DNA from: an uncultured Bacteriovoracaceae bacterium
GTDB lineage: Bacteria; Bdellovibrionota; UBA2428
NCBI GenBank assembly: GCA_964407615.1
Contig: CAYOWH010000001.1
Span: forward strand, 85,171 to 149,170
DNA length: 64,000 nucleotides
Direction: 5' to 3'
A program made the position numbers and the translations under genes. This document shows positions 2,965 to 47,816 of the stretch, one piece after another (position 1 is the stretch's first letter; the number at the start of each line of letters is the position of its first letter). Below the pieces are notes generated by a model. That model ran no database searches. It saw only the letters and a program-made list of their open reading frames with translations, and was not told the DNA's origin.

Positions 2965-2966
2965 TA

Positions 2967-11900: not shown

Positions 11901-12632
11901 AATAAAGAAAGAATTACATTTAATTTTGATGATATTTTTGAAGGTTTAAGAAACATTATCAAAACTGTAAATCAACAAAATTTAAGTCCTTATGCATCTG
12001 ATAATATGTTAGGCGCTTTAATGAGCGCCGGTAACAATAGACGTTTTACAAATGAAGATTATTTAAAACTTGTTAGAAATTTTGATGTTTTAGAAGCTGC
12101 AGTAGGTTCACAAGGATTAAGTACTCCTGAACAACAAGCTCTATTTGAGAATCTATTAGGTGTTAAAAAATCTAGTGTTTTGAGTATGGTCGGCGATAAT
12201 ATTGCTAATTTATCCAATATGAAAATGACTGCTGCAACTGCTGCAATTGTTGGGACATCATATTTATTATCATCTTCATATGATACAGAAGAACTTAGAC
12301 CAGAAGAAATATTTACTGATACTAGAGTTAATGAGAAAATTAGAAATAGAGAATTAGCTCAAGTACAAAATTATAATTCAGATGTATCGGTTTCTCCAGA
12401 TTCTATGCAGAGACCTTTTTATAAAGATATGGTAGGTAGAGTTCAAAGTCCAGGCAGTACAATGCTTGCTAGAAACCAATCATATTTAATTAAAGGAAAC
12501 GTTAGAAATATTGAAGAAGCAAATTATATGAACAAGATTGCTTTGCAAAATGGAGGTAGTTCAAGTATTATGATCAATGATAACCGCAAACCATTAACTG
12601 GTGGTTATCTTGATCAACTTATGGGAGAATAA
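2967..12632 (+). CDS. Giant virion/ejection-type megaprotein (3221 aa); candidate double-psi-beta-barrel RNA polymerase and/or tape-measure-like ruler
   Basis: Single 9.67-kb ORF. N-terminal hydrophobic helix TIGGASFVLGAGYLGFA (about nt 3058-3111). Globular region to about aa 1450. K/E/N/D/L-rich helical low-complexity region at about nt 7300-11130. C-terminal region carries GRAVYPEF...ISRAAVGDFDGDIYQIIL and another hydrophobic helix (about nt 12219-12285). The function is inference. Confidence 0.55.
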   Translation: MTNPSLIYNVYKKDTEERRAFARNSFDVLKTIGGASFVLGAGYLGFANDNPDMKNPIPGVKNLTNFMNSSGRKEDKPLPTRKIGKAIRDRSISDYQARTALAKEKAKEVTLNLFDEMSNVNAKDKLDEILAAKENQRITHLSVILDMINDPELNLDDEAKGKLITKVRGAIEDSSRMSDADKADIAGFLDSIRSNKTLEEKYVSLHQKNSNVAHLIATSSKRANNGANSLLTNPFETFSTQKNVNTIYYRQNLTESSLQDDAMWSIFKDKSNQVQNTVLNRYRTISDHLRLGNNNSNFKISFDIIKEANEDAYGVYARISSTHNRASNQPLIIPLMAAEGQHGKYVRLSSDYGNAKVAHNHYFDAADFAEVSKGQNLAEKQKIARDIFNKKMPTSSFEDFAINLLKTYSSNDLHYMNQAERNSFMEVLSGLTQYYPTHGQMDFGYTGLQQKHGIQIMSNTAYFFNKGATGGKFPVDLNELVALNIGIFGPAQGQAGTIRKELKSTSFEQQAVILDPNVVLGKPGASPAIIPYNIARTHGIKDQSLLPGSARIAQLFAKPEAMLGYFPANTKFETFEEMQQQIKSSSFGRTGAIKTSATKGRDLLVVGKEFQNLDLVGANTGIIIDFNSNAKKGQRLGLADAMQYRGGMHLISEPLQKSFQYTQGMTNLSLYESDVFQKILAGKEVNLFGEELETFFKNYGDKDGNLVLGFKDNMPTLIKKQKGMMGLKLKMNTNVNTERTGMFSIAGEMYGAHEGKIFSEAVKGVFFGEEQILDEGGMKNVLAQALYKKDPVTGKFINREAAMLEASHFFEHTYMKTFGGKIESTIIAGMDIVTKGPQYASSLLYGSLKMLGYEDTFIENNIFNMKGKIQAAEMDTKVKPHAVKYQTIIAENIIETFSNLIASSTSLPTVAGGNAQPVTPEVLGNLLIPAYHNLKEPATEPGQKAVAFKDQLKGLLANTKLTKAQQEVVLETADRGFFIGALSTFAGTQSTINKDRMARVEPRFANFVMGNLMGMFQMSEDEAAEYMAELFSKQSGVAEKAQAMTPLLLMGQSLHPSMDQGALKHSIDDFVGQGYLFRADEEFTKKFLRANVDVDSATALSNFLKEQQELNPQAMGFVLDIQQMFARGVEGNENINTAAYQSFLKQIGESKTELVVPLSNVLDVVSGVEIKSNQKDLKIESELYRKVNDIFAFLRESAVSTEEVDQTNKVNQAMYHVKQLQHMLGGMQRQILAGRMSGSATLEGKGVRLGDPEKDQITRFVSDDLDNAKILQKMNAAFIESNGYNMFLDTQAFMYASKTFNAQDPTEKRELYKKFLFGMEEDVLQISDGTMRIVNSLENGSFKPQGISGINFRNPQLGMSHIALNIDMYKYIGENLPESHYSDVLNYNTRGQIFLSSLSEFMGNNQDFRNKLANSGGQNVIDYIDQSKKAAADINDAFSFLNFKSLNILNQLNKTGIFKDMKFDFQQTTMEYLTSKKNKLESNVFNLNERIFNLQTAYQRNVKGIENTLNSNVISSYENLQERIAKARFFSNQKQQKQERLAGNIQQKQDFIQTLRQQRSEMLKGNFSYTRINKDTNVEESVDRVGKGFLNYYKQKSSNIKDIKNDRNRRLQAGRLLGKDSRYAYNSLNPNMTLDSTGTSFENVGDQIKRTDALDRYYRGYGYDNTYEEAIIKNYKEIDLQSHRLKLLLTQSKRSKSNLEKLTKQRDFQKLIINSFGGHEEEILSQIEVLHQSGKNKGKPMLDKFGKPIYKTQTEKFLNLTIIHPDFPITNKEIVETFGSHEFYNRTKIKEFNKVFESMKDTMQSDEANAFFKNKKARLNLFDFLYEMNNSDLSSEERTQLENKGLGRARVAKRFIPFIDSLDDDAQKVFYEHDGSDFLKDSEGNKIRKIITFDRESKTVTRNGKERTYSGFNYIKYNIENIDENGNLIDYADPNDPNKTIVKHISDKNKQVSVNSKTVYTYLENYIQQLSSDPTEHSDLNDNPIYKAFFKIFNYKKMNEKASSINKEIKTLQEAYVHFGYSPALAEDVIQKGLNRFLNDSKLYRESLKENLNLKRPISPTEINSQAISDIFALQDFGLQQNRTLGVDTDQLDLLELPRFLHEIKDDFAELLFTSDHFKRDASDNFTAMTYDENGKLIPFSKLHKQEKKKAIESLFSFVKTLMEDPIVPTTNHFHATSMLFDLLENLKEGKYQDQITNTSNSEAKIQEFTLKKQFVESMIQGKTKGANNFVNSMLYYAQSIIPKMLIREEQEIYQARKDFLQSFFSDEYDYHVVDDEGKFVRNITDSDEDKALIKAFQDNLKQNPDQTTFGKISATRLMKPFEELDDDQKEFYKNHLENKVEEALGEKQKKALSKVKINKGYELGPDGKPDKTKPIYYDESKQYSTLEELDKDISKYEAEERTKYKVGRINKNTQLIKEEEDKLATLQEKAKEARQERINIDLSIDELENNGLSRKTSANFYYEELASDFDEYDTDGNIIKKGELKDLARDTEGKVILDSEGKPTYVNALDEVGMPITSRQPETFLGKSNIILGLEAFTEEEEINLTKYNQETDESEIVYKTNYDPETGTHIPTDEPERITVKKVNKDLLKNFIRAHNYFTEMDELIYHDFYHEEDEAYYVEHDDVRTKQEQLLEKVRNNEDNLLQKLDDFEDGNTERLLYKPILRSPGDMDLTTLEQNEKIEKLQGFIEEENAKISEIDNKIANVDLNEEKQYHSLDDIINEAVDLYDQNYTRATGLGAGRAVYPEFETTFKFENTKDPSNTFDIKVRTDISRAAVGDFDGDIYQIILNNEKTSNAFKGQIQRNVREMQKTGAMMVVNMEIAKKAMSKVAERMDVANITYQDLLKSESSKERILKAGTGSVDVAVKKVAVGAAYNLAKGNMNLNDFRKTDLAAQLLISASQESVVIKSKSLDLATNIGELFTQTLNEAFKTGDTTKFETFMRDTVFKDTDFLNDLMVTKVSVENMPEPLASAYTEGLNKERITFNFDDIFEGLRNIIKTVNQQNLSPYASDNMLGALMSAGNNRRFTNEDYLKLVRNFDVLEAAVGSQGLSTPEQQALFENLLGVKKSSVLSMVGDNIANLSNMKMTAATAAIVGTSYLLSSSYDTEELRPEEIFTDTRVNEKIRNRELAQVQNYNSDVSVSPDSMQRPFYKDMVGRVQSPGSTMLARNQSYLIKGNVRNIEEANYMNKIALQNGGSSSIMINDNRKPLTGGYLDQLMGE
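11301..11315 (+). other. DFDGD motif (aa 2779-2783 of the 3221-aa protein), RNAP beta-prime/YonO/RdRP-like metal-binding signature
   Basis: Codons gac ttt gac ggt gat are in frame. The flanking pattern R-A-x-x-P...hydrophobic strand...AAVGDFDGD resembles NADFDGD of the beta-prime double-psi beta barrel. Confidence 0.45.
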
Positions 12633-12634: not shown

Positions 12635-13849
12635 TTGGCTGGTTTAAACTTAAATAAAGAAATTATCAATAGAGATTATTTTGAATATACTGGTAAAATG
12701 ACTTTTTCAGAAGTAAGTAATCATTTACGAGAATTAGGAGATAATACAGGGTTTATTTTAAACGACATATTATTTCCTATACCACCTATTTCTATTCAAA
12801 TTCAAAAAGATAATTTTAATTGGGGTTACAAAACACTAAGATCTAAGACTACAACGAAAATTGTATCTGGTAGAAGTAGTGTTGGTATTCAAATCAAATT
12901 ACTATTTAATAGAGAAATGATTTTAATGTTGCATCGTTTAATTATTCAAATAAGGAACAATCCTTTTGTATGGGTGAAAAATGATTACATTAAGAATTCT
13001 ATTTTAGAAATAGATCCTAATTTAGGTTTAGATCCATCCAATCCAACTAATCTTTTTTGTACTGTAGTTGGATTTAGAATAAGTTCTTATCAAGCCGGTG
13101 TATCTTCTTTTGAAGCAGAATTAGATTTAAAATATTTCAATTATTATCCTTATTCTCCAAATTTAATGTTTAGAAAAGAATTGGAATCTTTATTGATTCC
13201 AATTTCGGATATCAAATTCTCAAGTTTTGTGTTTCCTGTTTTTGATACTAGAAGACTTGCGCAAATAAACTACACTTTAACTAATCAAACTAACACTCAA
13301 GCTGCAACTACTGAAACAAATTCAACTTCTGATTCTACTAAAAAAGAATCAGAAACATACTTTACTTCGATGTATAGAAACTTAAAGAAATATAACTTTT
13401 CATTGAGTGTCAGAGAACCTTACTTTAGCAATGTATATGTTAGATACTATAATTACTTACAAATAAAATCTTTAACTGAGAACTTTGGAATAAATTGTGT
13501 TGATCGATCTATTTTTACAAAAGAAGAAATGTTACTTTTAGAATCAGGTTTAATAGGAGATAATTTTCAAAATTTAGTAATTGGAGTTCATTCAGCATAT
13601 TTACCAGAATACATTAAAATTAAATTAATTTTAAAGATGCTAGAAAAAGATTTAAATATGAAAATTTACTGGAATCAATATTTCTATTTAAACTTACCAG
13701 GAGAAGTATTAAAAAGATATCGACAAGAAATTTTGGATGGTACTGAAAAGATTAATGATGTTGAGCAAAGACAAAAGAAAATTCTTGAAAATCAAAAGAA
13801 AATAGCAGATGCTTTGATTAAAATTTCGAAAGAAGAAGGTGTAAAATGA
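12635..13849 (+). CDS. Hypothetical tail/baseplate-associated protein (404 aa), TTG start
   Basis: The ORF begins with TTG, 6 nt after a GGGAGA Shine-Dalgarno-like sequence. Its end overlaps the next start as ATGA. N-domain, T/S/N-rich linker (TNQTNTQAATTETNSTSDSTKK), then C-domain. It sits between the two megagenes. Confidence 0.6.
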   Translation: MAGLNLNKEIINRDYFEYTGKMTFSEVSNHLRELGDNTGFILNDILFPIPPISIQIQKDNFNWGYKTLRSKTTTKIVSGRSSVGIQIKLLFNREMILMLHRLIIQIRNNPFVWVKNDYIKNSILEIDPNLGLDPSNPTNLFCTVVGFRISSYQAGVSSFEAELDLKYFNYYPYSPNLMFRKELESLLIPISDIKFSSFVFPVFDTRRLAQINYTLTNQTNTQAATTETNSTSDSTKKESETYFTSMYRNLKKYNFSLSVREPYFSNVYVRYYNYLQIKSLTENFGINCVDRSIFTKEEMLLLESGLIGDNFQNLVIGVHSAYLPEYIKIKLILKMLEKDLNMKIYWNQYFYLNLPGEVLKRYRQEILDGTEKINDVEQRQKKILENQKKIADALIKISKEEGVK

Positions 13850-16800
13850 ATGAATTAGGCGTTAAAGGATTAATGACTGCAAAAGAATGGCAAAAAAATC
13901 AACATCTTACAGATGCTGATTTTGGCGTTCCCACTGGTATTCAAGAGATTTTATATTTTTTTAAATCTAGTGTTGGCGAAGGAGAAGATAAAGATAAGAT
14001 AGTAGCAAAAGAGAACACTAGTTTTTTCCTTAATCAATTATCTATTTTAGAAAAAAAAATAAGAAAGACTATCATTATTGCTGAATATTCTTTCGGTTGT
14101 TATCCTTGCAATAATGGGTTCTATACTTTATTTGGCAACAAATTTGTAAATAATGATGCAAGAGACTTAAATGGAAGTAACCAATACATTGAACGTCCTT
14201 TTTATATTGATTCAGAAAAGAAAATTTTAATAGACTTTTTAAATCCTGTTTTTTCTTCTTCTTCTCCAGATTCTGCAGAATACTCTTTGTCTTCTTTTAG
14301 CAAAAAATATTCTATTAACTCCAATGAGGATTATCGAAAGTATTTAAAAAATAATTTTATTTTTATTATTTTTTATTCTTATGAATTCAGCTCTATAGAA
14401 TCTTTAACTAATTCTCAGTTAGATTTTTTTGCTATTGATAGAATGTCAAATAAATTTTTAAAAACTGGTTTATCTCAATACTACTATTTTAAAGACTCAC
14501 AATTAAAACATCTTTTTAACAAAAAAGATCCAAACGATGATAGTCAAAAATTGTATTTTGTTTACGGTACAGATAATAAAAGTCCAATGACACAAGGATT
14601 TTCGATTTATATTTCTAAAATAAAAGGCAATCCAAATTTTACGGAAAGACTTGCTACTCCACCTACAAGAGATATATTTGATCCTGCTTCCTTTTTTAAT
14701 AAATATAATGATTTGCAAAAACCAAATGTAACAAAAGAAGAAGCAGAAGAAAGAATAAAGAAATTTTTATTTACTTATTTAGGTATTACTGCTCCTAGTA
14801 TAAGTGCGAAACTTGACGGAGAATATTATGATATTGAAAACGAAATTATTATTCCTCCTAATCAATTTGCTAATATAATGGACAAATCCTTAAAAGCAGA
14901 TCGATATGGCACTAAAGGAGATCCAGATGCTGTAGATTCTCTTACTAAAGGGATTCCTGGATTTTTTAAGAATAAATCCATCCCCAGTCCTTTTGTAGGA
15001 ATTACTAATATAATAATACAAGAAATTCTTACAAAAGAAAAAGTAACTGGATATCAAATTTCTAAATTTACTATTAACGAATTTGATTTTTCAAAAACAT
15101 CCGATGAAGTAAACCAACTAATAGCTTCTAATTATCAAGCTTTTTTAAAAGAAAATTATAATGTAATTGCAAAAAGTTTTTATGAGACTTTCTTAAAAAA
15201 AATGTTAGAGATATCTCCTCCAGAAAAAAAAGAAATAATAGAACCAGTTGCAATTGTACCTGAATTAGCTACTCCTGAACCACCTGCACCTGCTCCTCAA
15301 CCTGAACCAGAACCAATAGTTGCTGCACCTCCTCCACCACCTCCGCCACCTGAACCTGAAATAAAGCCTGTAGTAGAAGAACCCAAACCTGTAGAGCCTT
15401 GGCCATTAAAATATCTAACTAAAGAAGATCTATCTAATTTTAAAGAAATAAATTCAGTATTAAATGGAAATGAAACAGAATCTCCATATCAACCTTGGCT
15501 AAATAAAGATTATATTTCAAACATATTTACAAAAACAAAAGTTTTACCATTAACTATCGAAGATGGTCTTGATTTTAAAACAAAAGATAATGTTTTAGTT
15601 TCTGTTTCTGGCGGTATCAATTCTTTAACTGCAAACATCCCAATTCTAGGACAAGCATATCCTACTACACAATTTCTAAGTAGTATGGAACCTAACTATC
15701 AATTAAATCTAATAGCTTCAAATAATATGCATGCAAATGGTTTGGAAGATTCGGCAAGTGATCTTCCAAATGCAATTAAGCGTTTGGAAGAAATAAATAC
15801 TACAACACTTCGAACAGCCAGAGAATATAAGTTTGTACCAGATGGTTCTAGTATTTTAGTAGATTCTTTTATTACTAGATTATTTGGTTCATTTAAAGAA
15901 GAGTATGTAATTTTAGAAAACCTAGATGATGCAAACAGCTACTATGTTACTTTAAAAAAACCTATTAATATTGAAAGTACAGAATATAGAACTTTAGAAT
16001 CTAACCCTGGTGCTTCTGCATACAGTATGCGTTTAAGTGAAACCAATGTATATGATCCTGAAGTTTTAAAAGAAGTAACGACTAATAAGAAATTAAAAAA
16101 TGATCAATTATATAATGAAGTTGTAAATTATGCTTTGATGAATTGCGATAGTTCATCTTATATGAATAGATTTGTAGACACAAAAGAAAACATTCTTGTA
16201 AATAATATTGAAACTGGAGATGTTTTTGAATGGCAAACTAAATACTTTAAATCTTGGGACTTTTTTGGTCAGTATCTTAACAAAAAAGATGAGCTTAAAA
16301 AATTATTAGAAGAAAAACAAATTGCAAGGATTGTAAATCTTAACCTTTATGATTTAGCAAGCACATACTTAGATCCTTTATTTGAAGAATTAGCAAAAGA
16401 CGCAAATTTAGCTAAATTTTTTAAAGGAATTAAAATAACTAGTGGTTTTTCTACAGATGAAGATGATACAAGAACTACTTTTTCTCAACATTATTTTGGA
16501 TCTGCTGTTGATATTGTAGTACCCAATTTTAATGCTTTGCATATTGTGAGAATATTACAAAAAATATCTAATACAGTAAATCGTAAAATTGGTATTGGAG
16601 TTTACGGGAACGATATTTTGAAAAAAAATTATTACAAAGGAATTGAAACTGATGTAGCTGACTTAACATGGTGTACCGTAATGGATGGTCAAAAAGCTAC
16701 AACAGGTTTTGTGCATGTTGATTTAAGATTAAATATGTTAGATCAATTAGAATATGATTCAAAATTAGAAACCTATGCAAATTCAAATAATACTACTGTT

Positions 16801-19800
16801 CAAAATTTAAAAACCTTTGATAAAAGGAAGTTTTCTAGTTTAACGCAAGAAGAAAAAGATACTTATTTTGCTTTAAGAAAATTGAAGATGGAGTCTTTTA
16901 AAAAAGATATCAATAATCCTAATTACGAACCAGAATATCAAAGTTCAGTTTTTTGGTCTGCTGATACTGAAGGTAGTTATGCAGTAGGATATAACGATGA
17001 AAAAATAGATGTTTTCAAAACAAACATAGCGCCAGCTGAAGCCAGTCATCAATTCACTATATATGATGTTTATTTAGGAAAAGCTTCATTATCATATCTA
17101 CATCTTTATAATTATTTTGATCAAAATTATTATAATAATAATGAAATATTTATTAACAAAAGCAATGATATGAATCATATGAATCAGTACTATAAATCTT
17201 TATTTACTTCTTTTAGAAGTTCAATCATTAATACTGAAACAAATACTCCTTTAGATAGTGATGATGTAAATAATATAGATGACGTAGATGCAGATATCGA
17301 TACTGATATAGTTAAAACAACAAACAGTTTAGAATTTTCTAAAGAGACATCTCTTTATGATGAGAGTCTTAGACAAGAAAAATTCTTTAATCAGTTAGAT
17401 GAGCTATTCAATAGAGATACAATCGATTATGTTTTAGGTATTAATTATGAACAAAAGAAATTCTCAGAACTAGAAGATCCAGTAAAACAAAAATTAATGA
17501 GTTCAAATGTTACAAATGAATCTCCAGTATATATATATGATATAGATAATGGGAGCGAGCTAATTTCTTCTGAAAAATACAATGATTTTTATCATAAATA
17601 CAGAGCCGCTAATCCACAGTTAAGTTCAACTGCTACTGAGGTTCTTACAGCTTATTTTAAAGAAAATAAAATAGATGCATATGTAGAAGAAGATGACAAA
17701 TCAATATTTACAGATTATAAAATATATATATTGGATCCTTTAACTACATCTACTTTTACTAAAAGACAAACTTCAAATGCAGCTGAAGAAATAAAAGTTA
17801 AAAAACTTTTAACTATGATTTGCGATTTTCATTTACTAGCTGGAATTCTATTAATTGAACCTTACGTTTATCTAGATGATGAAAAAGAAATTAAAAAAGA
17901 AATAGCTAGATTTAATTCTACTTTTTATGGAATAAGTGTTGTTCCTTTGTACTTTAATAATTTGTATTATGCTATTACTGGATTAAGCTTAGAGTCATAT
18001 CAAAACGAAGGTATACAACCATACAATCAACAAGAATTGTTAGGGAAAAAAAATCAATTAACAAATTTCTTAAGTAATGATGGTATAAATTCTAAAAGTT
18101 ATGTTTCTAAATTCACAAAAACAAAAGATGATTGGACGATTAGTCGTAAACTTGAATCTACGACTGCATTTATTGCAGTCGCTACTCTCATAGGGGCAGT
18201 TGCACTTTCGGTAATAAGTGCTCCAGCACTTATTTTAGGTATGATTTTTGCAGGATATACAATGTATCAAGGTCTTGAATCTGCTGAAAAAGATAGGACT
18301 GGATTGATATTTGGAAGAGGATCAAGTCATGAATTATATAGTTCAAATTGGTTTAATTTAGCGTTATTAAAAGGTGTTATTTTAGATTCTTCTGGAGTTA
18401 ATGGATCTTTGACTAATAGTGAGCGATTAGGAATTTCAATTTTAAATCAAATTTATACTCAAATTGAGTATGATAAAGATTTGAATTTTAATTTGCAAAC
18501 TCTTTATAGCAAAATGAACAATGGAGAAGAGATCTGGGACTTTACTACTGATATAGTAAAACAATACTTAATAGAAAATCCTATAATTTTAAAATATAGT
18601 AAATTAAGTAAATATTTTAAAGAGAGCAATCAAGGTTTAACTTTTTCTTTAAGTAATATTATTGATCAGAATTTTTTTGAAAATGAAGAAAAAAAAGAAA
18701 AAAGTGGTTTAATTAATAATGGTTTTACAGAATCAAGTTTTGCACAAGATTGGTTAAAGTATATTTTAGGTTTTCCTTACCAAGAAGGGTTGCCATATTT
18801 TAAAGAAAATCATACTATTCAAATTGATAATGTTAAAAAAAATCAATCTAAAGATTCTAACAATATTCAATTTGAATATTTTTCAGGAATACTTGATGAA
18901 GTTAACGAAATATTTGAAGAAACTGATGCTTTGATTCCAAAAATTAGCATGGAAGAGAAAAAAGAAGAATTAAATAAAAATAAATCAGAATTTGAAGAAA
19001 AAATAAAATCTTTAGAAGAAAGCAAAACTGAAATTAATTTAAGGATAAAAAAAGCAAAAGATGATTTTTCCAAAGATAAAACGGTTACAGCTCTTGATGG
19101 ATTGAAACGTTCTACTTTTGAGGATAATTTAAAATTATTAAATGAAGAATTAAATAAAAATCTTGAAGATAGTAAACCTATTATTGAGAAATTAAAAGAA
19201 ATTAACAATAATATAAAGAAGTTAGACACTTCTTTATATTTAAAAGATATTTTTGAACAAGGAAAAGAACTTTATAAAAATACAAACATTAATATATTAT
19301 ATCCTTCGGGAGAGACTACTGTTTCAAATTTAGCTAATGTTGATTGGACATCTCTTTATTCTTTTTTTAGTACTATTCCTTTACCAGATAAACCAGATGC
19401 AAGAAATGATGTATTAAAAAATTTCAAACAAAAACTTACTTTAACTGACAATTTTATTTCAATTTTCTTAGGAGAAAGAAAATATGTGCAAAGGCCTAAC
19501 CATGTGAAAGAGCCTGGCAAATATTTCTTTTTTTCACAATCGCAAAATGTAATAGTAGAAGATTTTTTGCAAAGTTTTGCACTTTATTCAAATGAAACTA
19601 AAGAAAAATATGTTTTAGATGAAAGTAAATTACAAAACAATTTCTATTTCGAAGATGAAATAAATAAATTGTATAATAAGAATGAGTTTTTTACTGCTAA
19701 TTATCAATATAACAGATCTAACAAAGATTTGAAATATGAAAATTTAAAAGATTTATTTTTTAATATTCCTTCTGGATTAAAACAAGGAATTTGCACAGCT

Positions 19801-22800
19801 TATAAAGAACACAATGATAAAACCTTAGGTTTCTTAAAGAATTTATTAGAAGAAATAATTAAAGAACTTTTGAGTAGCGAGTTCTTTAAGAAAAATTTAA
19901 ATATTTCTGAAAACGAAAATGTCTCGGATTCTTTTGATTTTGGTAAGGATAAAAATAATTATCCAGATATTGACCTTCCTATCGACCCTTCTGAAGTTAA
20001 TTCAAATGTAAATTTAAATCCTGGATTCTTTTACTATGAATCAGATTTTAATGATAAAATTCTTACAGATGTAGATAACCGTGCAAACAATATTTTAAGA
20101 AAATCCTTAAAATTTATGAATGATTTGGAATCAGGTTTTGTAACTGGAGATGGTAAGAATCTTCAAAAAGGAGATCCTGCTGATAATTATGTTAAAGATA
20201 TAATTATTGATACTCAAGATTCTTCTTCTAGTTCATATTTAGTAAAAGGTGGTTCGGGAGACAGTTTTAAAGAATTAATGTTGAATCCAAATGCATCTGT
20301 AAAAATAAATTTTCAGCAAGATTCAATGACTACCTTAACTGCAAACGATATTGCCTTTATAGATATTAAAAATCTTGTTGAAAGTTCTCAAAGTGAAGTT
20401 AGACTTCAAACTTTAACAGATAAAATAAAAGAAATTCAAGATAAAACTAGTTCTATAGATATTGCTTTTGGTTCTAGAACTGGATTCTTAAATGAACCGC
20501 TAAGTTTATTGAATTTTTATAAAACATATAATCAAAAAGGCGATTCTTTATTCTTTGGAAATTCAGATACAGAAAAAGCTATAGCTGGCAAATTAGGTAT
20601 TTTTGACGATGCAGATTTAAGTAATAACAAAGAAGACATTTCTATGGTTATGAAACAATCTGGTAGAAAATTGTTCCAAAAACAATTTAAGATGCAAAAA
20701 GCATATCCTACATTTAGATTGTTTTTAATTGAAGAAGATGCAATTGAATCTGATACTTATTTTGTATTTGATGATTTTTATTCATTTAGCGCTGTGAAAG
20801 ATTTTACTGTTTACAAATCTAAAAAATTAGCTGCAGATACTGCAATTATAAGATTACAAAATGTATCTGGTGTACTAGATGGTACTAAGTTAGGTGTAAT
20901 TAGAGATGTAGATTATGAAATGGCTACTAATAGAATAAAAGAAGTTGAAGCAGAAAAGAAAGCAGAAGAGAAAAATACTCAAGTAATTGAATCTCTAGTT
21001 CTAAGGCCTGGTGTAGCTTGTCAATTGAGAGCTGGTTATTCATCTAATCCAAAAGAATTAACTATTCTTTTGTCAGGTAAAATAGCTGATGTTTCTTGGT
21101 CTTCTAGTGGAGATATGTGTGAAGTAGTAGTTCAATCTTTTGGTGTAGAATTAGAAGTTAGAAAGTATGGATCTAGTGATGTTGATTCAGGTGTTAGTGA
21201 ATTGGAATTCCATACTACTCATAAATTACTTGGTTGGTGTATGTTTAGAAATGAATTGAAACATTTTGGACGATTTAAAAAAGAAAGATTATTCCAAACT
21301 GGGATTAGTAATTCTGAATCTAAAGAAGTTGTAATATCTAAAGAAAGTTATATAGGTACTCCACCTGGCTATAGTGATAGTATGTTTCAATTCTTCCAAT
21401 CTAATTGGGGGTGGTTTGTAGTTGCTGACGTACTTTTGTCTGTAGCTACTGTCTTTATTGGTGGTGCTAGAGGACTTGCTAAAGAAGCTGTTTCTGAAGC
21501 TACCGAAGCTGTTGCTAAGACTGCTGCTAAAGAGGCAGGAGAAGAAGTAGTAGAAGCTGTAGCTAAAGAAGCTGCTGAAGCAACAGTTACAGAAGCAACT
21601 AAAGCTGCTGCTAAAACTACAGCTAAAGCTACTTTTATTAGTAAGACTGCACAATATTTAGCTTCTGCAATGAATATCTCTGATAATCTCTTAACAGGCA
21701 CAAAATGGTACTCTAAAGGATTGTTAGCTCCTTTTAGATGGGCTTTTGGATCTGGTTGGAATCCAGGTGCAAATACAGTAATAGTTAACAATGTATTAAG
21801 AAGAATTGCAAAGGATACAGCGGGTTTGTCAGATGACGCTTTAGAAGCTGTTGTCAAAGCAACATTACTTGAAAATGTAAAAGGAGGACGAGGTCCTTTA
21901 TTAACTACCCTAGGCAAAATATTTGGTTTAAATGTAGCAGTTGCTGGTTCTAATTTAAAAAGATTACTAACAGTCAGCCCTAAAGCTGTATTGTCTGGAA
22001 TTCAAAAAGCAACTAAAGAGGGAGTTCTAGATCAAAAGGTTGCTAATGCATTAGTTAAAGAAATGTCTACTAGTTTTAATGTTTTGTATGCTGGACGTAG
22101 TGCTCTTGAATCTTTTAGTTTAGGTTTTGTTAAAGCCAGCAAATTCTCAATATTAGCATTAGGCATAGGCGCTAGTATCGATATTGTTTCTAATATAGTA
22201 TCTGCTAGTACTGGTTATTTATCAGATTTAATTAGTAATACTTTAAATCCTTATTCTGAAAAAATTGCTTTATCTCCTCAAGATGATGCAATCTATGCAC
22301 CTCACCCAGACAGATACATAAAGCCTAAGAATGAAACAATAGGTGTTAGATTTGCTGATATTATGAAGAAAACTGGAATTGCATTTTTAAATGCAATGTC
22401 TATGTATCAAGCTGAAGCTAATGCTGAAAAATTACAGAAAGATATAATACTTGGAAGAACATTAGCAATGGACAAAAGAATGTATTCTAGTTCTGGAGAG
22501 AATATATTTAAATTAAAGAATCATACTATCTGGGAAGTCTTTCATGAGATGTCTTTGAGACATCCTGGTTGGGTATATGGTGCTAGACATTATGGTACTG
22601 GTTTAGAATATAGAATGTTTTTTGGTTTACCAAATCAAAGATATTTTGGTGCGCCATTAAATAATAGAACTATTTATCGGATGAATGATATTATTCGTGC
22701 AATTTCAAATAATGATTTAGCTAGTATGCGTAAATTAGTAGGCGAAACAGCTAATACTATTGACAATTATTTAAAAGATACAGAAGGATTAAAAGCAAAC

Positions 22801-24279
22801 TTTGATACAGCCAAATCAGCAATGTATAAAAGCATACTTTTAAATGAATGGAATAGAGTCACTGAAAAAAGATTTACACCTTTTAGAAATTATCATTTAG
22901 TATCAAGTAAATTTAATTTAGTTGCTAATAATATCAAAGGTGTAAATAATGATGTAATTAATGAAATCGCTGTTTTGTTTGTTAATAATTCTAGTACTGA
23001 AAATCCTGAATATACACAAAGAATTATTAGATCACACGAGAATATACCTGAAGATCAAATTCATGCTAAAGCTGTAAAATATGACAATTGCAAAGGTTTT
23101 AACAGTGCTTTAAGATATGGTACATCTGAATTATTAAACGCAGCTAAAGAAATGTATGCTGGCGAAATTTTAATACTTGGGAATCCTGAAATAAATCCTT
23201 ATGATGTGATTCTTTTAGATGATCAATATTCTGAGATGTACGGTCCTATTGAAGTAGAAGCTGTTACTCATATTTTTAGTATGGATACTGGTTTTATTAC
23301 TGAAATCAAACCAAATGCTTTAGTAACTGCAAATGAAGGTTTAACTTATCCTATTATTAATAGTGTAATTATGTATGATGTTGGTAGAGAATTAGCAGAG
23401 AAATCTCCTTTTGATTTTGTGAATACTGTAAAAACATACAGAAAAAATCCTAATGATGAAAAAAGTAAAAACACAATTAAAACTAGATTAAATGAATTAG
23501 TTAATAAATGGTTTGATAAAGAAGTTGGTACTTTTGAATTATTTGGTCTTTTTCCAAATACTGTACAAATTGGTTTTTCAGATTATCTAAAGATGGATGA
23601 TAATCAACAAGCAAAAATTAAAGAATCAATTGTTGAAGATTTGTTAAAACAAGTTCAAACAAACAACATTGTTTTACAAGCAGAAATATTAAATCCAAAT
23701 GCATCTATCGATTCTTTAATCGATACAAGTGCTATCACTGGTCTCTTGAGTAGTGCTGCAGCTATTGCATTAGCTACTACTGTAAAATTTGGTACAACTA
23801 AACTTCCTATTGCTTTCTTTACTGCTTTAGCAGCAGCTAGTGGAAATTTTAATTCAGTTATTAATAACCAATTGAGAACACCTGACAGTCTTCTTGCAAA
23901 TAAATTAATCCCTGGAGACATGTTAGTATCTCAAGTAGCTGATGGAAATCTTATGCAAATATTTCCTTTGTACAAGAATAATAAACCTTTAATTTATGCA
24001 GGCTATGATAAGATAAATGCTAAACGCAGAATTAAAAATAAGTTTGGAAATATATTTACTGATTTCTCTGATGCAATGGAAACTTTCAACATAATGTTGA
24101 AAGAATATGCAAATAAAGAAAATATTATTTATTCTGAACCTAATTTTGTTGCTGAAACTGCAGGTATACTAAGTGATGCTGCACAAAGTCTTTTGCCTTT
24201 TAAATTACCTGAAGGTACTATTAGAGGGTATATAAATTCTTATACTCCAGATCAACTGATAAACAAATCATTAAAGTAG
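13846..24279 (+). CDS. Giant tail megaprotein (3477 aa): M15/LAS peptidase domain + TM segments + split baseplate-hub (gpD/XkdQ-like) domain
   Basis: Single 10.4-kb ORF, ATGA-coupled to the upstream gene. The domains listed as separate features below were recognised by motif. It is followed directly by XkdS-like and Baseplate-J-like genes, the position normally held by tape measure and hub. Confidence 0.6.
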   Translation: MNELGVKGLMTAKEWQKNQHLTDADFGVPTGIQEILYFFKSSVGEGEDKDKIVAKENTSFFLNQLSILEKKIRKTIIIAEYSFGCYPCNNGFYTLFGNKFVNNDARDLNGSNQYIERPFYIDSEKKILIDFLNPVFSSSSPDSAEYSLSSFSKKYSINSNEDYRKYLKNNFIFIIFYSYEFSSIESLTNSQLDFFAIDRMSNKFLKTGLSQYYYFKDSQLKHLFNKKDPNDDSQKLYFVYGTDNKSPMTQGFSIYISKIKGNPNFTERLATPPTRDIFDPASFFNKYNDLQKPNVTKEEAEERIKKFLFTYLGITAPSISAKLDGEYYDIENEIIIPPNQFANIMDKSLKADRYGTKGDPDAVDSLTKGIPGFFKNKSIPSPFVGITNIIIQEILTKEKVTGYQISKFTINEFDFSKTSDEVNQLIASNYQAFLKENYNVIAKSFYETFLKKMLEISPPEKKEIIEPVAIVPELATPEPPAPAPQPEPEPIVAAPPPPPPPPEPEIKPVVEEPKPVEPWPLKYLTKEDLSNFKEINSVLNGNETESPYQPWLNKDYISNIFTKTKVLPLTIEDGLDFKTKDNVLVSVSGGINSLTANIPILGQAYPTTQFLSSMEPNYQLNLIASNNMHANGLEDSASDLPNAIKRLEEINTTTLRTAREYKFVPDGSSILVDSFITRLFGSFKEEYVILENLDDANSYYVTLKKPINIESTEYRTLESNPGASAYSMRLSETNVYDPEVLKEVTTNKKLKNDQLYNEVVNYALMNCDSSSYMNRFVDTKENILVNNIETGDVFEWQTKYFKSWDFFGQYLNKKDELKKLLEEKQIARIVNLNLYDLASTYLDPLFEELAKDANLAKFFKGIKITSGFSTDEDDTRTTFSQHYFGSAVDIVVPNFNALHIVRILQKISNTVNRKIGIGVYGNDILKKNYYKGIETDVADLTWCTVMDGQKATTGFVHVDLRLNMLDQLEYDSKLETYANSNNTTVQNLKTFDKRKFSSLTQEEKDTYFALRKLKMESFKKDINNPNYEPEYQSSVFWSADTEGSYAVGYNDEKIDVFKTNIAPAEASHQFTIYDVYLGKASLSYLHLYNYFDQNYYNNNEIFINKSNDMNHMNQYYKSLFTSFRSSIINTETNTPLDSDDVNNIDDVDADIDTDIVKTTNSLEFSKETSLYDESLRQEKFFNQLDELFNRDTIDYVLGINYEQKKFSELEDPVKQKLMSSNVTNESPVYIYDIDNGSELISSEKYNDFYHKYRAANPQLSSTATEVLTAYFKENKIDAYVEEDDKSIFTDYKIYILDPLTTSTFTKRQTSNAAEEIKVKKLLTMICDFHLLAGILLIEPYVYLDDEKEIKKEIARFNSTFYGISVVPLYFNNLYYAITGLSLESYQNEGIQPYNQQELLGKKNQLTNFLSNDGINSKSYVSKFTKTKDDWTISRKLESTTAFIAVATLIGAVALSVISAPALILGMIFAGYTMYQGLESAEKDRTGLIFGRGSSHELYSSNWFNLALLKGVILDSSGVNGSLTNSERLGISILNQIYTQIEYDKDLNFNLQTLYSKMNNGEEIWDFTTDIVKQYLIENPIILKYSKLSKYFKESNQGLTFSLSNIIDQNFFENEEKKEKSGLINNGFTESSFAQDWLKYILGFPYQEGLPYFKENHTIQIDNVKKNQSKDSNNIQFEYFSGILDEVNEIFEETDALIPKISMEEKKEELNKNKSEFEEKIKSLEESKTEINLRIKKAKDDFSKDKTVTALDGLKRSTFEDNLKLLNEELNKNLEDSKPIIEKLKEINNNIKKLDTSLYLKDIFEQGKELYKNTNINILYPSGETTVSNLANVDWTSLYSFFSTIPLPDKPDARNDVLKNFKQKLTLTDNFISIFLGERKYVQRPNHVKEPGKYFFFSQSQNVIVEDFLQSFALYSNETKEKYVLDESKLQNNFYFEDEINKLYNKNEFFTANYQYNRSNKDLKYENLKDLFFNIPSGLKQGICTAYKEHNDKTLGFLKNLLEEIIKELLSSEFFKKNLNISENENVSDSFDFGKDKNNYPDIDLPIDPSEVNSNVNLNPGFFYYESDFNDKILTDVDNRANNILRKSLKFMNDLESGFVTGDGKNLQKGDPADNYVKDIIIDTQDSSSSSYLVKGGSGDSFKELMLNPNASVKINFQQDSMTTLTANDIAFIDIKNLVESSQSEVRLQTLTDKIKEIQDKTSSIDIAFGSRTGFLNEPLSLLNFYKTYNQKGDSLFFGNSDTEKAIAGKLGIFDDADLSNNKEDISMVMKQSGRKLFQKQFKMQKAYPTFRLFLIEEDAIESDTYFVFDDFYSFSAVKDFTVYKSKKLAADTAIIRLQNVSGVLDGTKLGVIRDVDYEMATNRIKEVEAEKKAEEKNTQVIESLVLRPGVACQLRAGYSSNPKELTILLSGKIADVSWSSSGDMCEVVVQSFGVELEVRKYGSSDVDSGVSELEFHTTHKLLGWCMFRNELKHFGRFKKERLFQTGISNSESKEVVISKESYIGTPPGYSDSMFQFFQSNWGWFVVADVLLSVATVFIGGARGLAKEAVSEATEAVAKTAAKEAGEEVVEAVAKEAAEATVTEATKAAAKTTAKATFISKTAQYLASAMNISDNLLTGTKWYSKGLLAPFRWAFGSGWNPGANTVIVNNVLRRIAKDTAGLSDDALEAVVKATLLENVKGGRGPLLTTLGKIFGLNVAVAGSNLKRLLTVSPKAVLSGIQKATKEGVLDQKVANALVKEMSTSFNVLYAGRSALESFSLGFVKASKFSILALGIGASIDIVSNIVSASTGYLSDLISNTLNPYSEKIALSPQDDAIYAPHPDRYIKPKNETIGVRFADIMKKTGIAFLNAMSMYQAEANAEKLQKDIILGRTLAMDKRMYSSSGENIFKLKNHTIWEVFHEMSLRHPGWVYGARHYGTGLEYRMFFGLPNQRYFGAPLNNRTIYRMNDIIRAISNNDLASMRKLVGETANTIDNYLKDTEGLKANFDTAKSAMYKSILLNEWNRVTEKRFTPFRNYHLVSSKFNLVANNIKGVNNDVINEIAVLFVNNSSTENPEYTQRIIRSHENIPEDQIHAKAVKYDNCKGFNSALRYGTSELLNAAKEMYAGEILILGNPEINPYDVILLDDQYSEMYGPIEVEAVTHIFSMDTGFITEIKPNALVTANEGLTYPIINSVIMYDVGRELAEKSPFDFVNTVKTYRKNPNDEKSKNTIKTRLNELVNKWFDKEVGTFELFGLFPNTVQIGFSDYLKMDDNQQAKIKESIVEDLLKQVQTNNIVLQAEILNPNASIDSLIDTSAITGLLSSAAAIALATTVKFGTTKLPIAFFTALAAASGNFNSVINNQLRTPDSLLANKLIPGDMLVSQVADGNLMQIFPLYKNNKPLIYAGYDKINAKRRIKNKFGNIFTDFSDAMETFNIMLKEYANKENIIYSEPNFVAETAGILSDAAQSLLPFKLPEGTIRGYINSYTPDQLINKSLK
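15259..15399 (+). other. Proline-rich linker (PELATPEPPAPAPQPEPEPIVAAPPPPPPPPEPEIKPVVEEPKPVEP)
   Basis: A locally GC-rich run of CCN/GAA codons inside the 3477-aa ORF, separating an N-terminal ~470-aa region from the rest. Confidence 0.8.
16210..16745 (+). other. Peptidase M15 / LAS-family zinc D,D- or L,D-peptidase domain (virion-associated cell-wall hydrolase)
   Basis: KITSGFSTD...TFSQHYFGSAVDIVV...IGIGVYGN...GFVHVDLR gives the S-x-H-x-x-G-x-A-x-D and H-x-D zinc-ligand motifs. By my count these are H882, D889, H957 and D959. Confidence 0.65.
20698..21175 (+). other. Baseplate hub / late-control-D (gpD, XkdQ)-like domain, N-terminal part
   Basis: KAYPTFRLFLIEEDA...AADTAIIRLQNVSG...VLRPGVACQLRAGYSSNPKELTILLSGKIADVSWSSSGDMCEVVVQSFGVELE matches the usual pattern l.pG..v.l.aGY.....l..lf.G.I..v. 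Confidence 0.5.
21406..21630 (+). other. Transmembrane helix followed by an Ala/Glu/Lys/Thr periodic low-complexity helix, inserted within the hub domain
   Basis: WGWFVVADVLLSVATVFIGGARGL, then AKEAVSEATEAVAKTAAKEAGEEVVEAVAKEAAEATVTEATKAAAKTTAKA. Repetitive GCT/GAA/AAA codons. Confidence 0.7.
23158..23325 (+). other. Baseplate hub (gpD/XkdQ-like) domain, C-terminal part
   Basis: AGEILILGNPEINPYDVILLDDQYSEMYGPIEVEAVTHIFSMDTGFITEIKP matches the typical hub C-terminus G.i.l.G.p.i.p.d.v.l....sg.~G.y.v..v.H.....Gy.T.i. Confidence 0.5.
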
Positions 24280-24285: not shown

Positions 24286-24807
24286 ATGAGTCAAAAAGTT
24301 AAAGGTATCAGATCTAATTTTAATAAAGCTGTTAATAATTCAGAAATTTTTAAAGCATCTTTTAACAAAGACATGAAAGTCTTTGTTCACGCTTTAGTTA
24401 TCGATATTGTTAGTGGAAACAAAACTTCTAGTAGATTTTTACCTGATGAAAAATTTGATCAAGGTGGATTCTTTGTTATTTGTGGAGTTGAAAAACTAGA
24501 AAGAATTATTTCTATACAAGTTAAAAGTTTAACTTATGATCAAATTAGACAGCAATATGGATCCGACTTCAATATCATTGGTAGAAGAATTTTAATAGAG
24601 TGCAATGCATATGATGAGTTTTCTATTAAAGCTGGGATAATTAATTTTGACCCGCCATATCAAACAAACTACTATGAAAATGAAGATAGAAATGTTCCTA
24701 TTAGTTATGGGAATATGTTTGGACATTCATCTAGAAAAGAAGATAGAATGTTTTACAATCAAGAAGCTAGTGAAAATATTGGCTTTAATTGGAGACCTTT
24801 AATATGA
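24286..24807 (+). CDS. Hypothetical baseplate-core protein (173 aa)
   Basis: ORF between the hub megagene and the XkdS-like gene. ATGA overlap with the next gene. No motif recognised. Confidence 0.55.
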   Translation: MSQKVKGIRSNFNKAVNNSEIFKASFNKDMKVFVHALVIDIVSGNKTSSRFLPDEKFDQGGFFVICGVEKLERIISIQVKSLTYDQIRQQYGSDFNIIGRRILIECNAYDEFSIKAGIINFDPPYQTNYYENEDRNVPISYGNMFGHSSRKEDRMFYNQEASENIGFNWRPLI

Positions 24808-25160
24808 GTAATGTATTTGTCGGGCCGCAAAATAAAACAATAAAAGCTCAATTTAATTCATTCTGCACTGCAGCTTTAGTATGCGAAATGAATAACATTG
24901 TACTTACTGCTGGCAGTCGAAATAAAACAAATTTAATTGAAGTATCTGATAATGGTATTTATATGCAACCTGCATCAGGACAATCTATCACTCTAGGAAC
25001 TTATTCTATTAAAGGACCTTTACATTATGAAAATCCAATCATATTTAATAGAATGCTACCTGGTGTAACTCAAGCACCTAGTGCATTTTTTAGTTTAGAT
25101 ATGTTAAAAAAAGGAGTACAAATTGGTACTGCTTTAGGTTCACTAGGAGTTATATTATGA
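24804..25160 (+). CDS. Hypothetical baseplate-core protein (118 aa from ATG at 24804)
   Basis: The ORF track starts at 24789. ATG 24804 forms an ATGA overlap with the upstream stop, and the product begins MSNVFVGPQNK. Hydrophobic C-terminus. Confidence 0.55.
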   Translation: MSNVFVGPQNKTIKAQFNSFCTAALVCEMNNIVLTAGSRNKTNLIEVSDNGIYMQPASGQSITLGTYSIKGPLHYENPIIFNRMLPGVTQAPSAFFSLDMLKKGVQIGTALGSLGVIL

Positions 25161-25591
25161 TTAGAGATTTAATCTATACTGAAGATTGTGATTTTTATTT
25201 AGATCAAAACAGAAATATTTCAAAAACAAATGATGACATAAATCTAAGTAGACTTAAGCAAACTATTATAAAAAGATTACAGACTACATATTCTGATTAT
25301 GTAGTACCTAGTAGAGATAATATACTTACTGCAGATCTTTTAAATTATTTAGGAAAGAACATTGATGAAGATCTTTTGAGAACATTGAAATACAATATAT
25401 ATAATGTTTTAACATACGACGGTTTAGTGGATTCTGCTAAATTAAAATTTGTAAACGAACAAATATTTCAAACAGAAGTTTATTTGTTAATATCTATTGA
25501 ACAAACGAAAAGCTTACCTATTTATTTAAATATAGTTTATGATACAAAAAACAATCATGTTGTTCCTAGAATTTTAAGAAGATTAGGTTAA
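25157..25591 (+). CDS. Baseplate wedge protein, XkdS/DUF2634 or gp25/GPW-like
   Basis: 144 aa, lying immediately upstream of the J-like gene. The pattern LSRLKQTIIKRLQTTYSDYVV...LLNYLGKNIDEDLL..LKYNIYNVLTYDGLV resembles the XkdS/gp25 family core. Confidence 0.4.
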   Translation: MIRDLIYTEDCDFYLDQNRNISKTNDDINLSRLKQTIIKRLQTTYSDYVVPSRDNILTADLLNYLGKNIDEDLLRTLKYNIYNVLTYDGLVDSAKLKFVNEQIFQTEVYLLISIEQTKSLPIYLNIVYDTKNNHVVPRILRRLG

Positions 25592-25595
25592 TATA

Positions 25596-47784: not shown

Positions 47785-47816
47785 ATTTATATGCTTTACT
47801 TTTCTTGGAGGCTGCC

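Follow-up and report, generated by a model that had tools for sequence, protein, structure and literature searches.

A giant phage protein with a predicted gp27/gpD-type hub, an M15-type peptidase domain, and a hydrophobic hairpin: a probable baseplate hub of the 0305phi8-36 lineage

We analyzed a 64-kb stretch of contig CAYOWH010000001.1 (assembly GCA_964407615.1, positions 85,171 to 149,170 of the forward strand), here called the window, which is part of a genome of ~158 kb. The window contains an open reading frame (ORF) of 3477 amino acids (aa). We conclude, with a probability of roughly 80%, that this giant ORF codes for the hub at the center of the baseplate in a low-GC, contractile-tailed phage of the 0305phi8-36 lineage that is represented in metagenomes, and that the hub carries an M15-type peptidase as cargo together with a hydrophobic hairpin. 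An initial annotation of the same DNA, made from the sequence alone, had proposed that a gp27/gpD-type hub is joined in one polypeptide to a domain that hydrolyzes the wall and to a hydrophobic hairpin of the transmembrane type, and this combination stands. The features discussed below are listed in Table 1.

Hub fold and homology

Residues 2260 to 3440 were modeled with AlphaFold2 from a 38-sequence alignment, giving a mean predicted local distance difference test (pLDDT) value of 59 and a predicted template modeling score of 0.57. The model contains two confident blocks, residues 2289 to 2479 and residues 2879 to 3219, with pLDDT values mostly of 70 to 90, and has low confidence between them. 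When the model was compared with the PDB by Foldseek, 25 matches had an E value of ≤1e-3, and all 25 are baseplate hub or central-spike chains. They include chains from the Streptomyces and Algoriphagus contractile injection systems, PVC, AFP, diffocin, the pyocin R2 hub, Mu gp44, and a Neisseria Mu-like protein, as well as chains from phages Milano, 7-7-1, PhiTE, and 812, T4 gp27, and VgrG. Because every PDB match at this threshold is a hub or spike chain, we regard the hub fold as confirmed by structure, and the model shows residues 2285 to 3165 as predicted gp27/gpD-type channel domains. The two pieces of DNA that had been picked out by eye as the halves of a hub, nucleotides (nt) 20698 to 21175 and 23158 to 23325, both fall inside the confident beta-barrel blocks.

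Sequence comparisons lead to the same family of proteins. The giant protein matches PHROG 20474 (E = 5.9e-41), and tblastn against phage records finds only hub, "endolysin," or baseplate proteins of jumbo myophages, namely, Bacillus phage 0305phi8-36 (gp147, E = 4e-9), Moorella MTATph1, Bacillus KLEB27-3, Edson, WH1, and Acinetobacter ME3. A family profile matches all three hub domains of gp147 (full-sequence E = 1.3e-52 in a two-sequence search): domain 1 aligns with gp147 residues 834 to 1032 (domain E = 1.7e-22), and the later hub domains align with residues 1185 to 1254 and 1338 to 1411. The match to the gp147-like "hyperplastic" hubs of PHROG 20474 is significant across the hub core. A protein search with residues 2200 to 3477 yielded 8 relatives, and a profile search yielded 37. 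In an exhaustive profile search with domains 2 and 3, we obtained 2003 clusters (50% identity) at E ≤1e-3, including 733 at E ≤1e-30, and most of the top 150 cluster matches are 1800 to 4076 aa long. We also considered a conventional endolysin, which is the label of the PHROG family, and rejected it on the basis of size, hub fold, and gene position. The annotation is corrected accordingly: this PHROG "endolysin" family is a virion hub.

The two confident blocks are separated by an insertion that is smaller than the ~650 aa originally estimated. Domain 1 ends at the motif HFGR (aa 2473), a conserved LSPQDD motif follows at aa 2810, and domain 2 begins at IWEVFHEM (aa 2896). HFGR and PQDD are 334 aa apart in the giant protein and 200 to 355 aa apart in most relatives; for P0038 the distance is 117 aa, and for P0007 it is only 27 aa. 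Because this spacing varies across relatives, the true insertion can be set at ~334 aa (aa 2477 to 2809). Two hydrophobic helices lie within it, as do a helix rich in Ala, Glu, and Lys and a helical region. Residues 2810 to 3104 are conserved hub sequence that takes in the LSPQDD linker and domain 2 and reaches into the first part of domain 3; they are modeled at a pLDDT of 80 to 90 and are 98% and 96% identical to the orthologue, with a ratio of nonsynonymous to synonymous substitution rates (dN/dS) of 0.10 to 0.12. To our knowledge, domain 2 separates domains 1 and 3 in every gp27-type hub. There may be a second variable spot at about aa 2940 to 3010, judging from the sequences of two relatives: P0008 has an M23 peptidase domain (aa 1519 to 1613) inside its hub, between the regions homologous to domains 1 and 3 (L002 positions 13127 to 15700), and P0035 is ~190 aa longer across domains 2 and 3.

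M15-type peptidase domain

The motifs SQHYFGSAVD (aa 880 to 889) and FVHVD (aa 955 to 959), from which an M15/LAS peptidase had first been proposed, are present and are invariant in 12 divergent relatives that are only 21 to 61% identical in this domain. The invariant residues are R876, T878, S880, H882, G885, A887, D889, F955, H957, and D959, and they fit SxHxxGxAxD ... hHhD, which we take to be the pattern of LAS/M15 enzymes. Purifying selection acts on this LAS-type signature of the active site. The predicted zinc ligands are H882 (nt 16489 to 16491), D889 (nt 16510 to 16512), and H957 (nt 16714 to 16716), which is the H-x6-D arrangement with a downstream H that is used to recognize M15/LAS peptidases.

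In a Pfam search with the whole protein, just Peptidase_M15_3 was found (E = 0.016). When the 12 family members were searched on their own, 8 matched PF08291 at E ≤0.05 (best E = 4.5e-5), and a different family was matched by only 1 of them (E = 0.033). PHROG 894, "endolysin," matches aa 778 to 963 at 1e-4. The AlphaFold model of the domain has a pLDDT of 72. About 30 of its top 50 PDB neighbors are hedgehog N-terminal domains, and the VldE endopeptidase domain is also among them, all at E ≥0.16; hedgehog is the "S" of LAS. The named neighbors in BFVD are mostly "Peptidase M15A," "Peptidase M15," or peptidoglycan-binding proteins, at E values of 4e-3 to 0.8. Profile searches of the PDB with the M15 region, starting from either a 3-sequence or a 12-sequence alignment, gave no match. 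No single line is decisive, but these weak indications from motifs, profiles, and the model converge and are concordant, and we accept the assignment as a putative M15A/LAS-type peptidase.

Relatives of the giant protein carry other wall-degrading domains. An M23 domain occurs in seven of these proteins; in P0007 and P0008 it scores 69 to 82 bits, which is above the Pfam cut-off, and M23 or Amidase_2 is recorded in the protein database for six more. P0018 has Amidase_2 together with the M15 motif, and Pfam finds NlpC/P60 and M23 in gp147. Comparison of these sequences shows that the hub core carries exchangeable cargo, which in the window is a predicted peptidase of the M15A/LAS type; a peptidoglycan-hydrolase domain is thus fused to a gp147-like hub core. 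The domain boundaries are now defined for expression of the M15 module.

Hydrophobic and helical segments

The high content of I, L, F, and V in the protein made a shuffle control necessary for the hydrophobic segments. On average, a shuffled version has 3.4 segments whose Kyte-Doolittle mean over 19 residues is ≥1.6, and the mean maximum of the shuffles is 1.94. The candidate double transmembrane hairpin at aa 1438 to 1474 reaches 2.35 (with a Hessa-scale sum of -0.55) and is a run of 37 residues from which D, E, K, R, H, N, and Q are all absent. Of 2000 shuffles, not one attained such a run of 37, the longest being 30, which bears out the double hydrophobic stretch of the initial annotation. 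By hydropathy, then, aa 1438 to 1474 has what is expected of an integral membrane segment, at least 19 uncharged residues beyond what composition provides. About half of the relatives have uncharged runs of 28 to 58 residues at a comparable relative position, and the BLAST-conserved region around the hairpin is aa 1291 to 1480.

Three weaker segments, two of which contain Asp, were also considered as membrane helices. Here the outcome is mixed: their hydropathy is not above that of the shuffles, and their positions are conserved. In many relatives, the insertion is flanked by hydrophobic peaks whose aligned positions are the same, and several relatives have a hydrophobic segment at the aligned position of aa 3291 to 3313. 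The case that these three segments are real comes solely from this conservation of position, and the proposal that all the hydrophobic stretches are transmembrane helices was rejected after the shuffle control. A coiled coil had been placed at about nt 18930 to 19230. There is a K/E/L-rich stretch at this site, for which the coiled coil itself is suggested by composition only; it belongs to the part of the protein that diverges most and is 41% identical to its orthologue on contig L005.

Gene neighborhood

The DNA around the giant ORF has a G+C content of ~28%, and tightly packed, often overlapping plus-strand ORFs extend from position 1 to ~48.1 kb. The window starts with an ORF of at least 987 aa that is truncated at its edge, and this is followed by a 3221-aa ORF, a 404-aa ORF that we call o3, and the giant hub gene. 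Immediately downstream are four baseplate genes, the last of which encodes a 413-aa protein (25596 to 26837) that matches PHROG 6, "baseplate wedge subunit," at 1.4e-30. The order of giant ORFs, hub, and proteins of ~175 aa, ~120 aa, and ~145 aa followed by Baseplate_J is the same in the metagenomic contig L001 and in L005, and it recurs, slightly varied, in a second metagenomic contig (L002), in 0305phi8-36, and in Mu. In 0305phi8-36, the order is gp145 (virion protein), gp146 ("hypothetical tape measure"), gp147 (annotated as [quoted passage not shown]), gp148 (gpV-like), and gp151 (gpJ-like). In the plain version found in Mu, the tape measure (gp42) is followed by gp43 and then by the hub (gp44), after which come the V-like gp45 and two wedge proteins (gp46 and gp47). 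The giant gene therefore occupies the position of a gp27/gpD/VgrG-type hub, between the tape measure and the gpV and gpW/gpJ genes.

The 3221-aa ORF is probably the tape measure, and if it is, a very long tail is implied. It has the position of gp146. It has no match in Pfam or PHROG and no hydrophobic segment (its Kyte-Doolittle mean peaks at 1.31). Since this separate ORF (2967 to 12632) takes the tape-measure position, the giant protein does not have it, and the suggestion that a tape measure is fused into the giant protein is not supported.

It had also been stated that no separate endolysin is visible in the window. This is correct for the ORFs scanned against Pfam and PHROG, which are all plus-strand ORFs downstream of the hub gene and the minus-strand ORFs at 48.4 to 53.1 kb and 56.1 to 57.1 kb; the minus strand at 53.1 to 55.9 kb and beyond 57.1 kb lies outside these scans, the statement does not extend to it, and the window takes in just 64 kb of the ~158-kb genome.

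Table 1. Features of the giant hub gene and its neighbors in the window
Feature	Positions (nt)	Strand	Residues or size	Basis or remarks
Putative tape measure	2967 to 12632	+	3221 aa	Same place as 0305phi8-36 gp146; homologue upstream of the L001 hub genes
o3	12635 to 13849	+	404 aa	4-nt ATGA overlap with start of hub gene
Giant hub gene	13846 to 24279	+	3477 aa	ORF listing and translation; no stop inside
Lineage-specific N-terminal head	13846 to 15240	+	aa 1-465	Function unassigned
Proline-rich linker	15241 to 15399	+	aa 466-518	Read from sequence
Conserved module	15436 to 16245	+	aa 531-800	BLASTP; function unassigned
Predicted M15A/LAS-type zinc peptidase domain	16321 to 16785	+	aa ~826-980	Motifs, Pfam, PHROG, model
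Hydrophobic hairpin, candidate double transmembrane	18157 to 18267	+	aa 1438-1474	Hydropathy, shuffles
K/E/L-rich helical stretch, possible coiled coil	18931 to 19230	+	aa 1696-1795	Composition only
Conserved pre-hub region	19582 to 20697	+	aa 1913-2284	BLASTP; dN/dS 0.25; function unassigned
Hub domain 1, predicted tube-like beta barrel	20698 to 21273	+	aa 2285-2476	AlphaFold strands, pLDDT 70-92; 98% identity, dN/dS 0.09
Family-variable insertion	21274 to 22272	+	aa 2477-2809	pLDDT 30-45; long helices predicted
Hydrophobic helix	21403 to 21477	+	aa 2520-2544	Kyte-Doolittle 1.97
Second hydrophobic helix	22144 to 22206	+	aa 2767-2787	Kyte-Doolittle 1.83
LSPQDD linker and hub domains 2 and 3	22273 to 23340	+	aa 2810-3165	pLDDT 80-90; Foldseek hub/spike matches
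Conserved C-terminal region	23341 to 24276	+	aa 3166-3477	96% identity, dN/dS 0.13 versus L005
Ala/Gly/Ser-rich hydrophobic segment	23716 to 23784	+	aa 3291-3313	Kyte-Doolittle 1.61
Downstream baseplate genes	24286 to 26837	+	173, 123, 144, 413 aa	gpV/spike position (173 aa); phrog_25235 (144 aa); gpJ/gp6-like wedge (413 aa)

Alternative explanations

Several results count against the assignment of the giant protein as a hub with peptidase and membrane segments. No Pfam hub model, such as Phage_GPD, matches the whole protein at E ≤1. A sequence-profile search of the PDB with hub domain 1 was empty, the best match of the domain 2-3 profile was the phage 812 hub at just E = 0.12, and hhalign of the domain 1 and domain 2-3 profiles with Mu gp44 gave no match. 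The pLDDT of the hub model as a whole is low (59), and the lone Foldseek alignment that spans both hub halves (7b5h_AJ; 890 columns) has a root-mean-square deviation of 19.9 Å, so that the two halves may, but need not, pack into one gp27-like unit. For the peptidase, the isolated domain scores 20.8 to 21.6 bits with PF08291, which is under the Pfam gathering cut-off of 23.2, and its model has no significant Foldseek match (best E of 0.16 in the PDB and 4e-3 in BFVD). Finally, three of the four hydrophobic features (aa 2520 to 2544, 2767 to 2787, and 3291 to 3313) are no stronger than those of shuffled sequences, and 0305phi8-36 gp147 lacks any hydrophobic segment, from which it follows that membrane engagement is not general to the family.

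The main alternative is that the N-terminal ~2280 aa are stored in extended form in the lumen of the tail tube and ejected before the DNA, in the manner of a siphophage tape measure such as T5 Pb2, so that the protein is a second tape measure or ejectosome joined to a hub. Tape measures typically show features such as these, namely, a lysin domain, a hydrophobic hairpin, and long stretches of helical, low-complexity sequence. The 3221-aa ORF has no hydrophobic segment, so the membrane-active element usually expected of a tape measure is found only in the hub protein. Moreover, L001 has the protein in two pieces, split immediately ahead of the hairpin at about aa 1290, which indicates that the N-terminal part can be a separate protein. 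Nevertheless, we consider this alternative unlikely. The tape-measure position is already filled, as it is by gp146; no tape-measure family of Pfam or PHROG matches the giant protein; the N terminus is, in 25 relatives, the conserved o3 module, which resembles an assembly domain rather than a length ruler; and three copies of a ~2280-aa segment would be a very large load beside a 3221-aa tape measure in the lumen.

A somewhat less likely alternative still is that the protein is a structural hub only, in which the hydrophobic stretches are buried helices of a large helical decoration, similar to the clamp domain of phage 812, and the M15-like domain is an inactive binding or assembly module, so that the protein would neither cleave the wall nor go into a membrane. 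It would accommodate the three hydrophobic features that are at chance level, the low-confidence modeling of the insertion as long helices, and the M15 match under the Pfam cut-off. There is also a precedent, since the weld protein of phage 812 has a clip domain with the CHAP fold, a lysin-fold baseplate domain that has been proposed to be inactive (PMC13433997). On the other hand, invariance of the zinc ligands and their neighbors at 21 to 61% identity is not expected of a degenerate domain, and relatives carry enzyme domains within the same protein, those of P0007 and P0008 passing the Pfam cut-off and M23 or Amidase_2 being recorded for six more. The 37-residue uncharged run is also far beyond chance and recurs in relatives.

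Integrity and mosaic evolution of the gene

The 3477-aa protein is not peculiar to one assembly. An identical protein, P0011, is present in a public protein collection, from a contig of 158,217 bp, and orthologues from independent assemblies are 3473, 3467, 3558, and 3494 aa long, with the same start residue in all those tested. The 3473-aa orthologue is on the 158.6-kb contig L005, where the neighbors match as well (3228+, 404, 173, 118, 144, and 413 aa). In comparison with this orthologue, dN/dS is <1 in 15 of 15 segments, and the codon alignment contains no stops. Because orthologues have matching boundaries and dN/dS is <1 throughout, we conclude that the giant ORF is a real single gene, as the initial annotation had assumed. 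That misassembly or frameshift errors joined several real genes, which the extreme length of the ORF and the different division of the same material in L001 (1517 aa plus 2229 aa) might suggest, is very improbable in view of five independent assemblies (3467 to 3558 aa, same start), the stop-free alignment with dN/dS of <1 in each segment, and the length of 1800 to 4076 aa of most top family matches. Megablast of the giant gene against phage records gave no match, and neither did phmmer when all 3477 aa were compared with PDB sequences.

The gene directly upstream, o3, belongs with the hub. By BLASTP, it corresponds to residues ~1 to 400 of the hub protein in 25 of the 38 relatives; it matches positions 138 to 233 of the PHROG 20474 profile and also aligns inside gp147 and the Moorella phage protein. 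Its strongly conserved motifs are F-x-I-N-D-I ... K-T-L-R-x-K ... H-R-L-I ... N-x-P-F. Judged by these alignments, o3 is an N-terminal module that has become detached from the giant hub and makes up one functional unit with it. Because it is fused in 25 of 38 relatives, the lineage of the window has split it off and is less fused than its relatives. This changes the standing of the fusion, which was first presented as exceptional: most relatives include o3 as well, and among ~2000 clusters most of the top matches are 1800 to 4076 aa long. In L001, the partition is different again, with o3 and the equivalent of aa ~1 to 1290 forming a 1517-aa protein and the remainder forming a 2229-aa protein. 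No match to o3 was found in Pfam, in a PDB profile search, or by hhalign with Mu gp43. Since the hhalign result was empty, its equivalence to Mu gp43 is suggested by gene position alone.

The N terminus of the giant protein consists, as originally described, of an unfamiliar head of ~470 aa (aa 1 to 465) and a poly-proline linker (aa ~466 to 518). Pfam and PHROG scans of aa 1 to 465 found no family match. The head (aa 1 to ~520) is located at the break point with o3 and is found only in P0013, P0014, and P0015. Compared with L005, it is 67% identical with a dN/dS of 0.82, which is almost neutral and suggests relaxed or diversifying selection. GC skew is negative at 14.1 to 15.7 kb, which covers the head and the proline linker (-0.04 to -0.24, against a mostly positive background of about +0.08 to +0.22 in the plus-strand block). 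This fits a separately acquired segment, and it partly reflects the CCN codons of proline.

Other parts of the protein differ greatly in their conservation, giving a mosaic in the comparison with L005 (window 13846 to 19581 versus L005 10001 to 15700). Residues 531 to 800 are 89% identical (dN/dS of 0.19) and are aligned by BLASTP, wholly or in part, in every relative of fused architecture and in the upstream protein of L001. Residues 801 to 1912, which contain the peptidase, the hairpin, and the K/E-rich helices, are only 38 to 59% identical, with a dS of ~0.8 to 1.5, whereas the hub is 96 to 98% identical, with a dS of ~0.1. This pattern suggests module exchange, that is, recombinational replacement of the middle modules, and module exchange has been proposed for the 0305phi8-36 lineage by Hardies et al. 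(PMC2147016). BLASTP alignments of many relatives start at aa ~1913 to 2040, in the conserved pre-hub region, and extend to the end of hub domain 1 at about aa 2486. The conserved C-terminal region includes a terminal beta module, predicted as AlphaFold strands at model residues 1101 to 1146 with a pLDDT of ~70.

Other genes of the window and related contigs

Toward the end of the structural block, an 843-aa protein (45228 to 47759, plus strand) has repeated PHROG matches to tail fiber, head decoration, structural protein, and peptidase families (down to 1.5e-26), and by these matches it is probably a fiber or decoration protein of repeated domains. The block ends with a 111-aa coiled-coil protein (47805 to 48140, plus strand) that has weak matches to PHROG "hemolysin" families (phrog_1193 and phrog_937). 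These matches suggest that it may be lysis associated; no endolysin adjoins the gene. The opposite-strand block at 48365 to 57145 encodes a MobA-like nucleoside triphosphate transferase (48365 to 48964), a PDDEXK nuclease (50598 to 50957), a ClpP-family protease (50954 to 51628), and an IMPDH/GMP-reductase-family protein (56081 to 57145), which look like the auxiliary or metabolic genes of a large phage.

In L002, a giant ORF at positions 1 to 3260, two genes upstream of P0008, has faint to weak matches to intein and LAGLIDADG families. When reference genomes were searched with the domain 2-3 profile, two contigs from metagenome-assembled genomes (L006 and L007) were the only matches, one labeled "uncultured archaeon" (6 kb) and the other labeled "Magnetovibrio sp." (112 kb). 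Both may be phage contigs that were binned with cellular genomes, and they indicate no reliable host. In the phage collection searched by megablast and tblastn, there is no cultured member of the clade to which the phage of the window belongs.

Proposed mechanism and significance

By analogy with T4 gp27/gp5 and with phage 812, a trimer of the hub would be located at the tail-tube tip and would be driven through the cell envelope when the sheath contracts. The M15-type peptidase would then cleave the peptide links of peptidoglycan locally, and the hairpin, possibly together with the weaker helices that flank the insertion and lie near the C terminus, would engage the cytoplasmic membrane. Such engagement could anchor the DNA conduit or help to open it.

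A bolder version assigns the inner-membrane conduit of this clade to the hub polypeptide itself instead of to the tape measure, so that one protein would nucleate the baseplate, cut the peptidoglycan, and form the DNA channel. In that case, once the wall had been cut by the M15 domain, the trimer would insert at least 6 helices, and more if the helices flanking the insertion also insert. The conserved hairpin on the hub and the lack of a hydrophobic segment in the 3221-aa putative tape measure are the basis for this idea, which we regard as speculative and doubtful. The way in which contractile-tailed phages cross the cytoplasmic membrane is poorly understood, and the pore is usually credited to the tape measure with the hub assisting; this family is a natural test case for how membrane penetration is shared between the two.

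Comparison with known systems

Membrane-active hydrophobic segments and a peptidoglycan hydrolase are reportedly combined in one tail polypeptide in phage T5, the tape measure of which, Pb2, is said to have fusogenic and muralytic activities. Pb2 is like the giant hub in this respect; however, it is the tape measure of a siphophage and not a hub, and no homology to the giant hub was detected.

The hubs of P2 (gpD) and Mu (gp44), of the Phage_GPD family (PDB 1wru and 9ki1), resemble the giant hub in fold (Foldseek E = 7e-5 to 1e-3) and in the position of their genes between the tape measure and the V/W/J genes. They are only ~380 aa long, have no enzyme, and show no sequence-level match by Pfam or hhalign. 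The gp27-gp5 complex of T4 (PDB 1k28) shares the hub fold (Foldseek E = 2e-4 to 7e-4) and likewise delivers a wall hydrolase to the tube tip, but its lysozyme is on the separate spike protein gp5, and gp27 is a soluble protein of ~390 aa without an insertion. T4 gp27 remains at the tip of the tube and probably helps to form the inner-membrane pore (PMC13433997).

The hub of Staphylococcus phage 812 (PDB 9euf/9eug, chain E; EMBO J 2026) is a closer parallel. It has channel domains I to IV, a CHAP "cleaver" that is active in zymograms, and an alpha-helical, saposin-like "clamp" domain that is speculated to bind membrane (PMC13433997). It matches the hub model at a Foldseek E of ~2e-4 and is the best PDB match of the domain 2-3 profile, although sequence similarity is marginal. 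In contrast to the giant hub, it is 808 aa long, its enzyme is a CHAP domain at the C terminus rather than an M15 domain, and its clamp is an amphipathic saposin-like domain rather than a hydrophobic hairpin.

By sequence, the closest characterized relative of the giant hub is 0305phi8-36 gp147, which Hardies et al. described in 2007 as a "hyperplastic" homologue of the gp27 hub with wall-degrading domains, namely, transglycosylase, NlpC/P60, and M23; its match to gp27 was weak and confined to folding domains 1 and 3 (PMC2147016). The two proteins share homologous hub domains 1 to 3, the o3 module, the same place in the gene order, and fused, exchangeable wall-degrading domains. They differ in length (1903 aa for gp147 versus 3477 aa plus the 404-aa o3), in the enzymes carried (M15 in the giant hub), in the spacing of domains 1 and 2 (~150 aa versus ~420 aa), and in the hairpin, which gp147 lacks. 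The phage that encodes gp147 infects a Gram-positive host, while the phage of the window is known from metagenomes only, several of them marine.

With gp147 (PMC2147016) and the phage 812 hub (PMC13433997) as precedents, the premise of the initial annotation that hub and lysin are normally separate and that hubs are soluble is not supported. A hub core with exchangeable wall-degrading domains has been known since 2007, and phage 812 provides a solved example, so the giant hub is not a new kind of machine. What is new is its size (3477 aa by itself and 3881 aa when o3 is counted), the predicted M15 cargo, the 334-aa helical insertion between domains 1 and 2, and the conserved hydrophobic hairpin.

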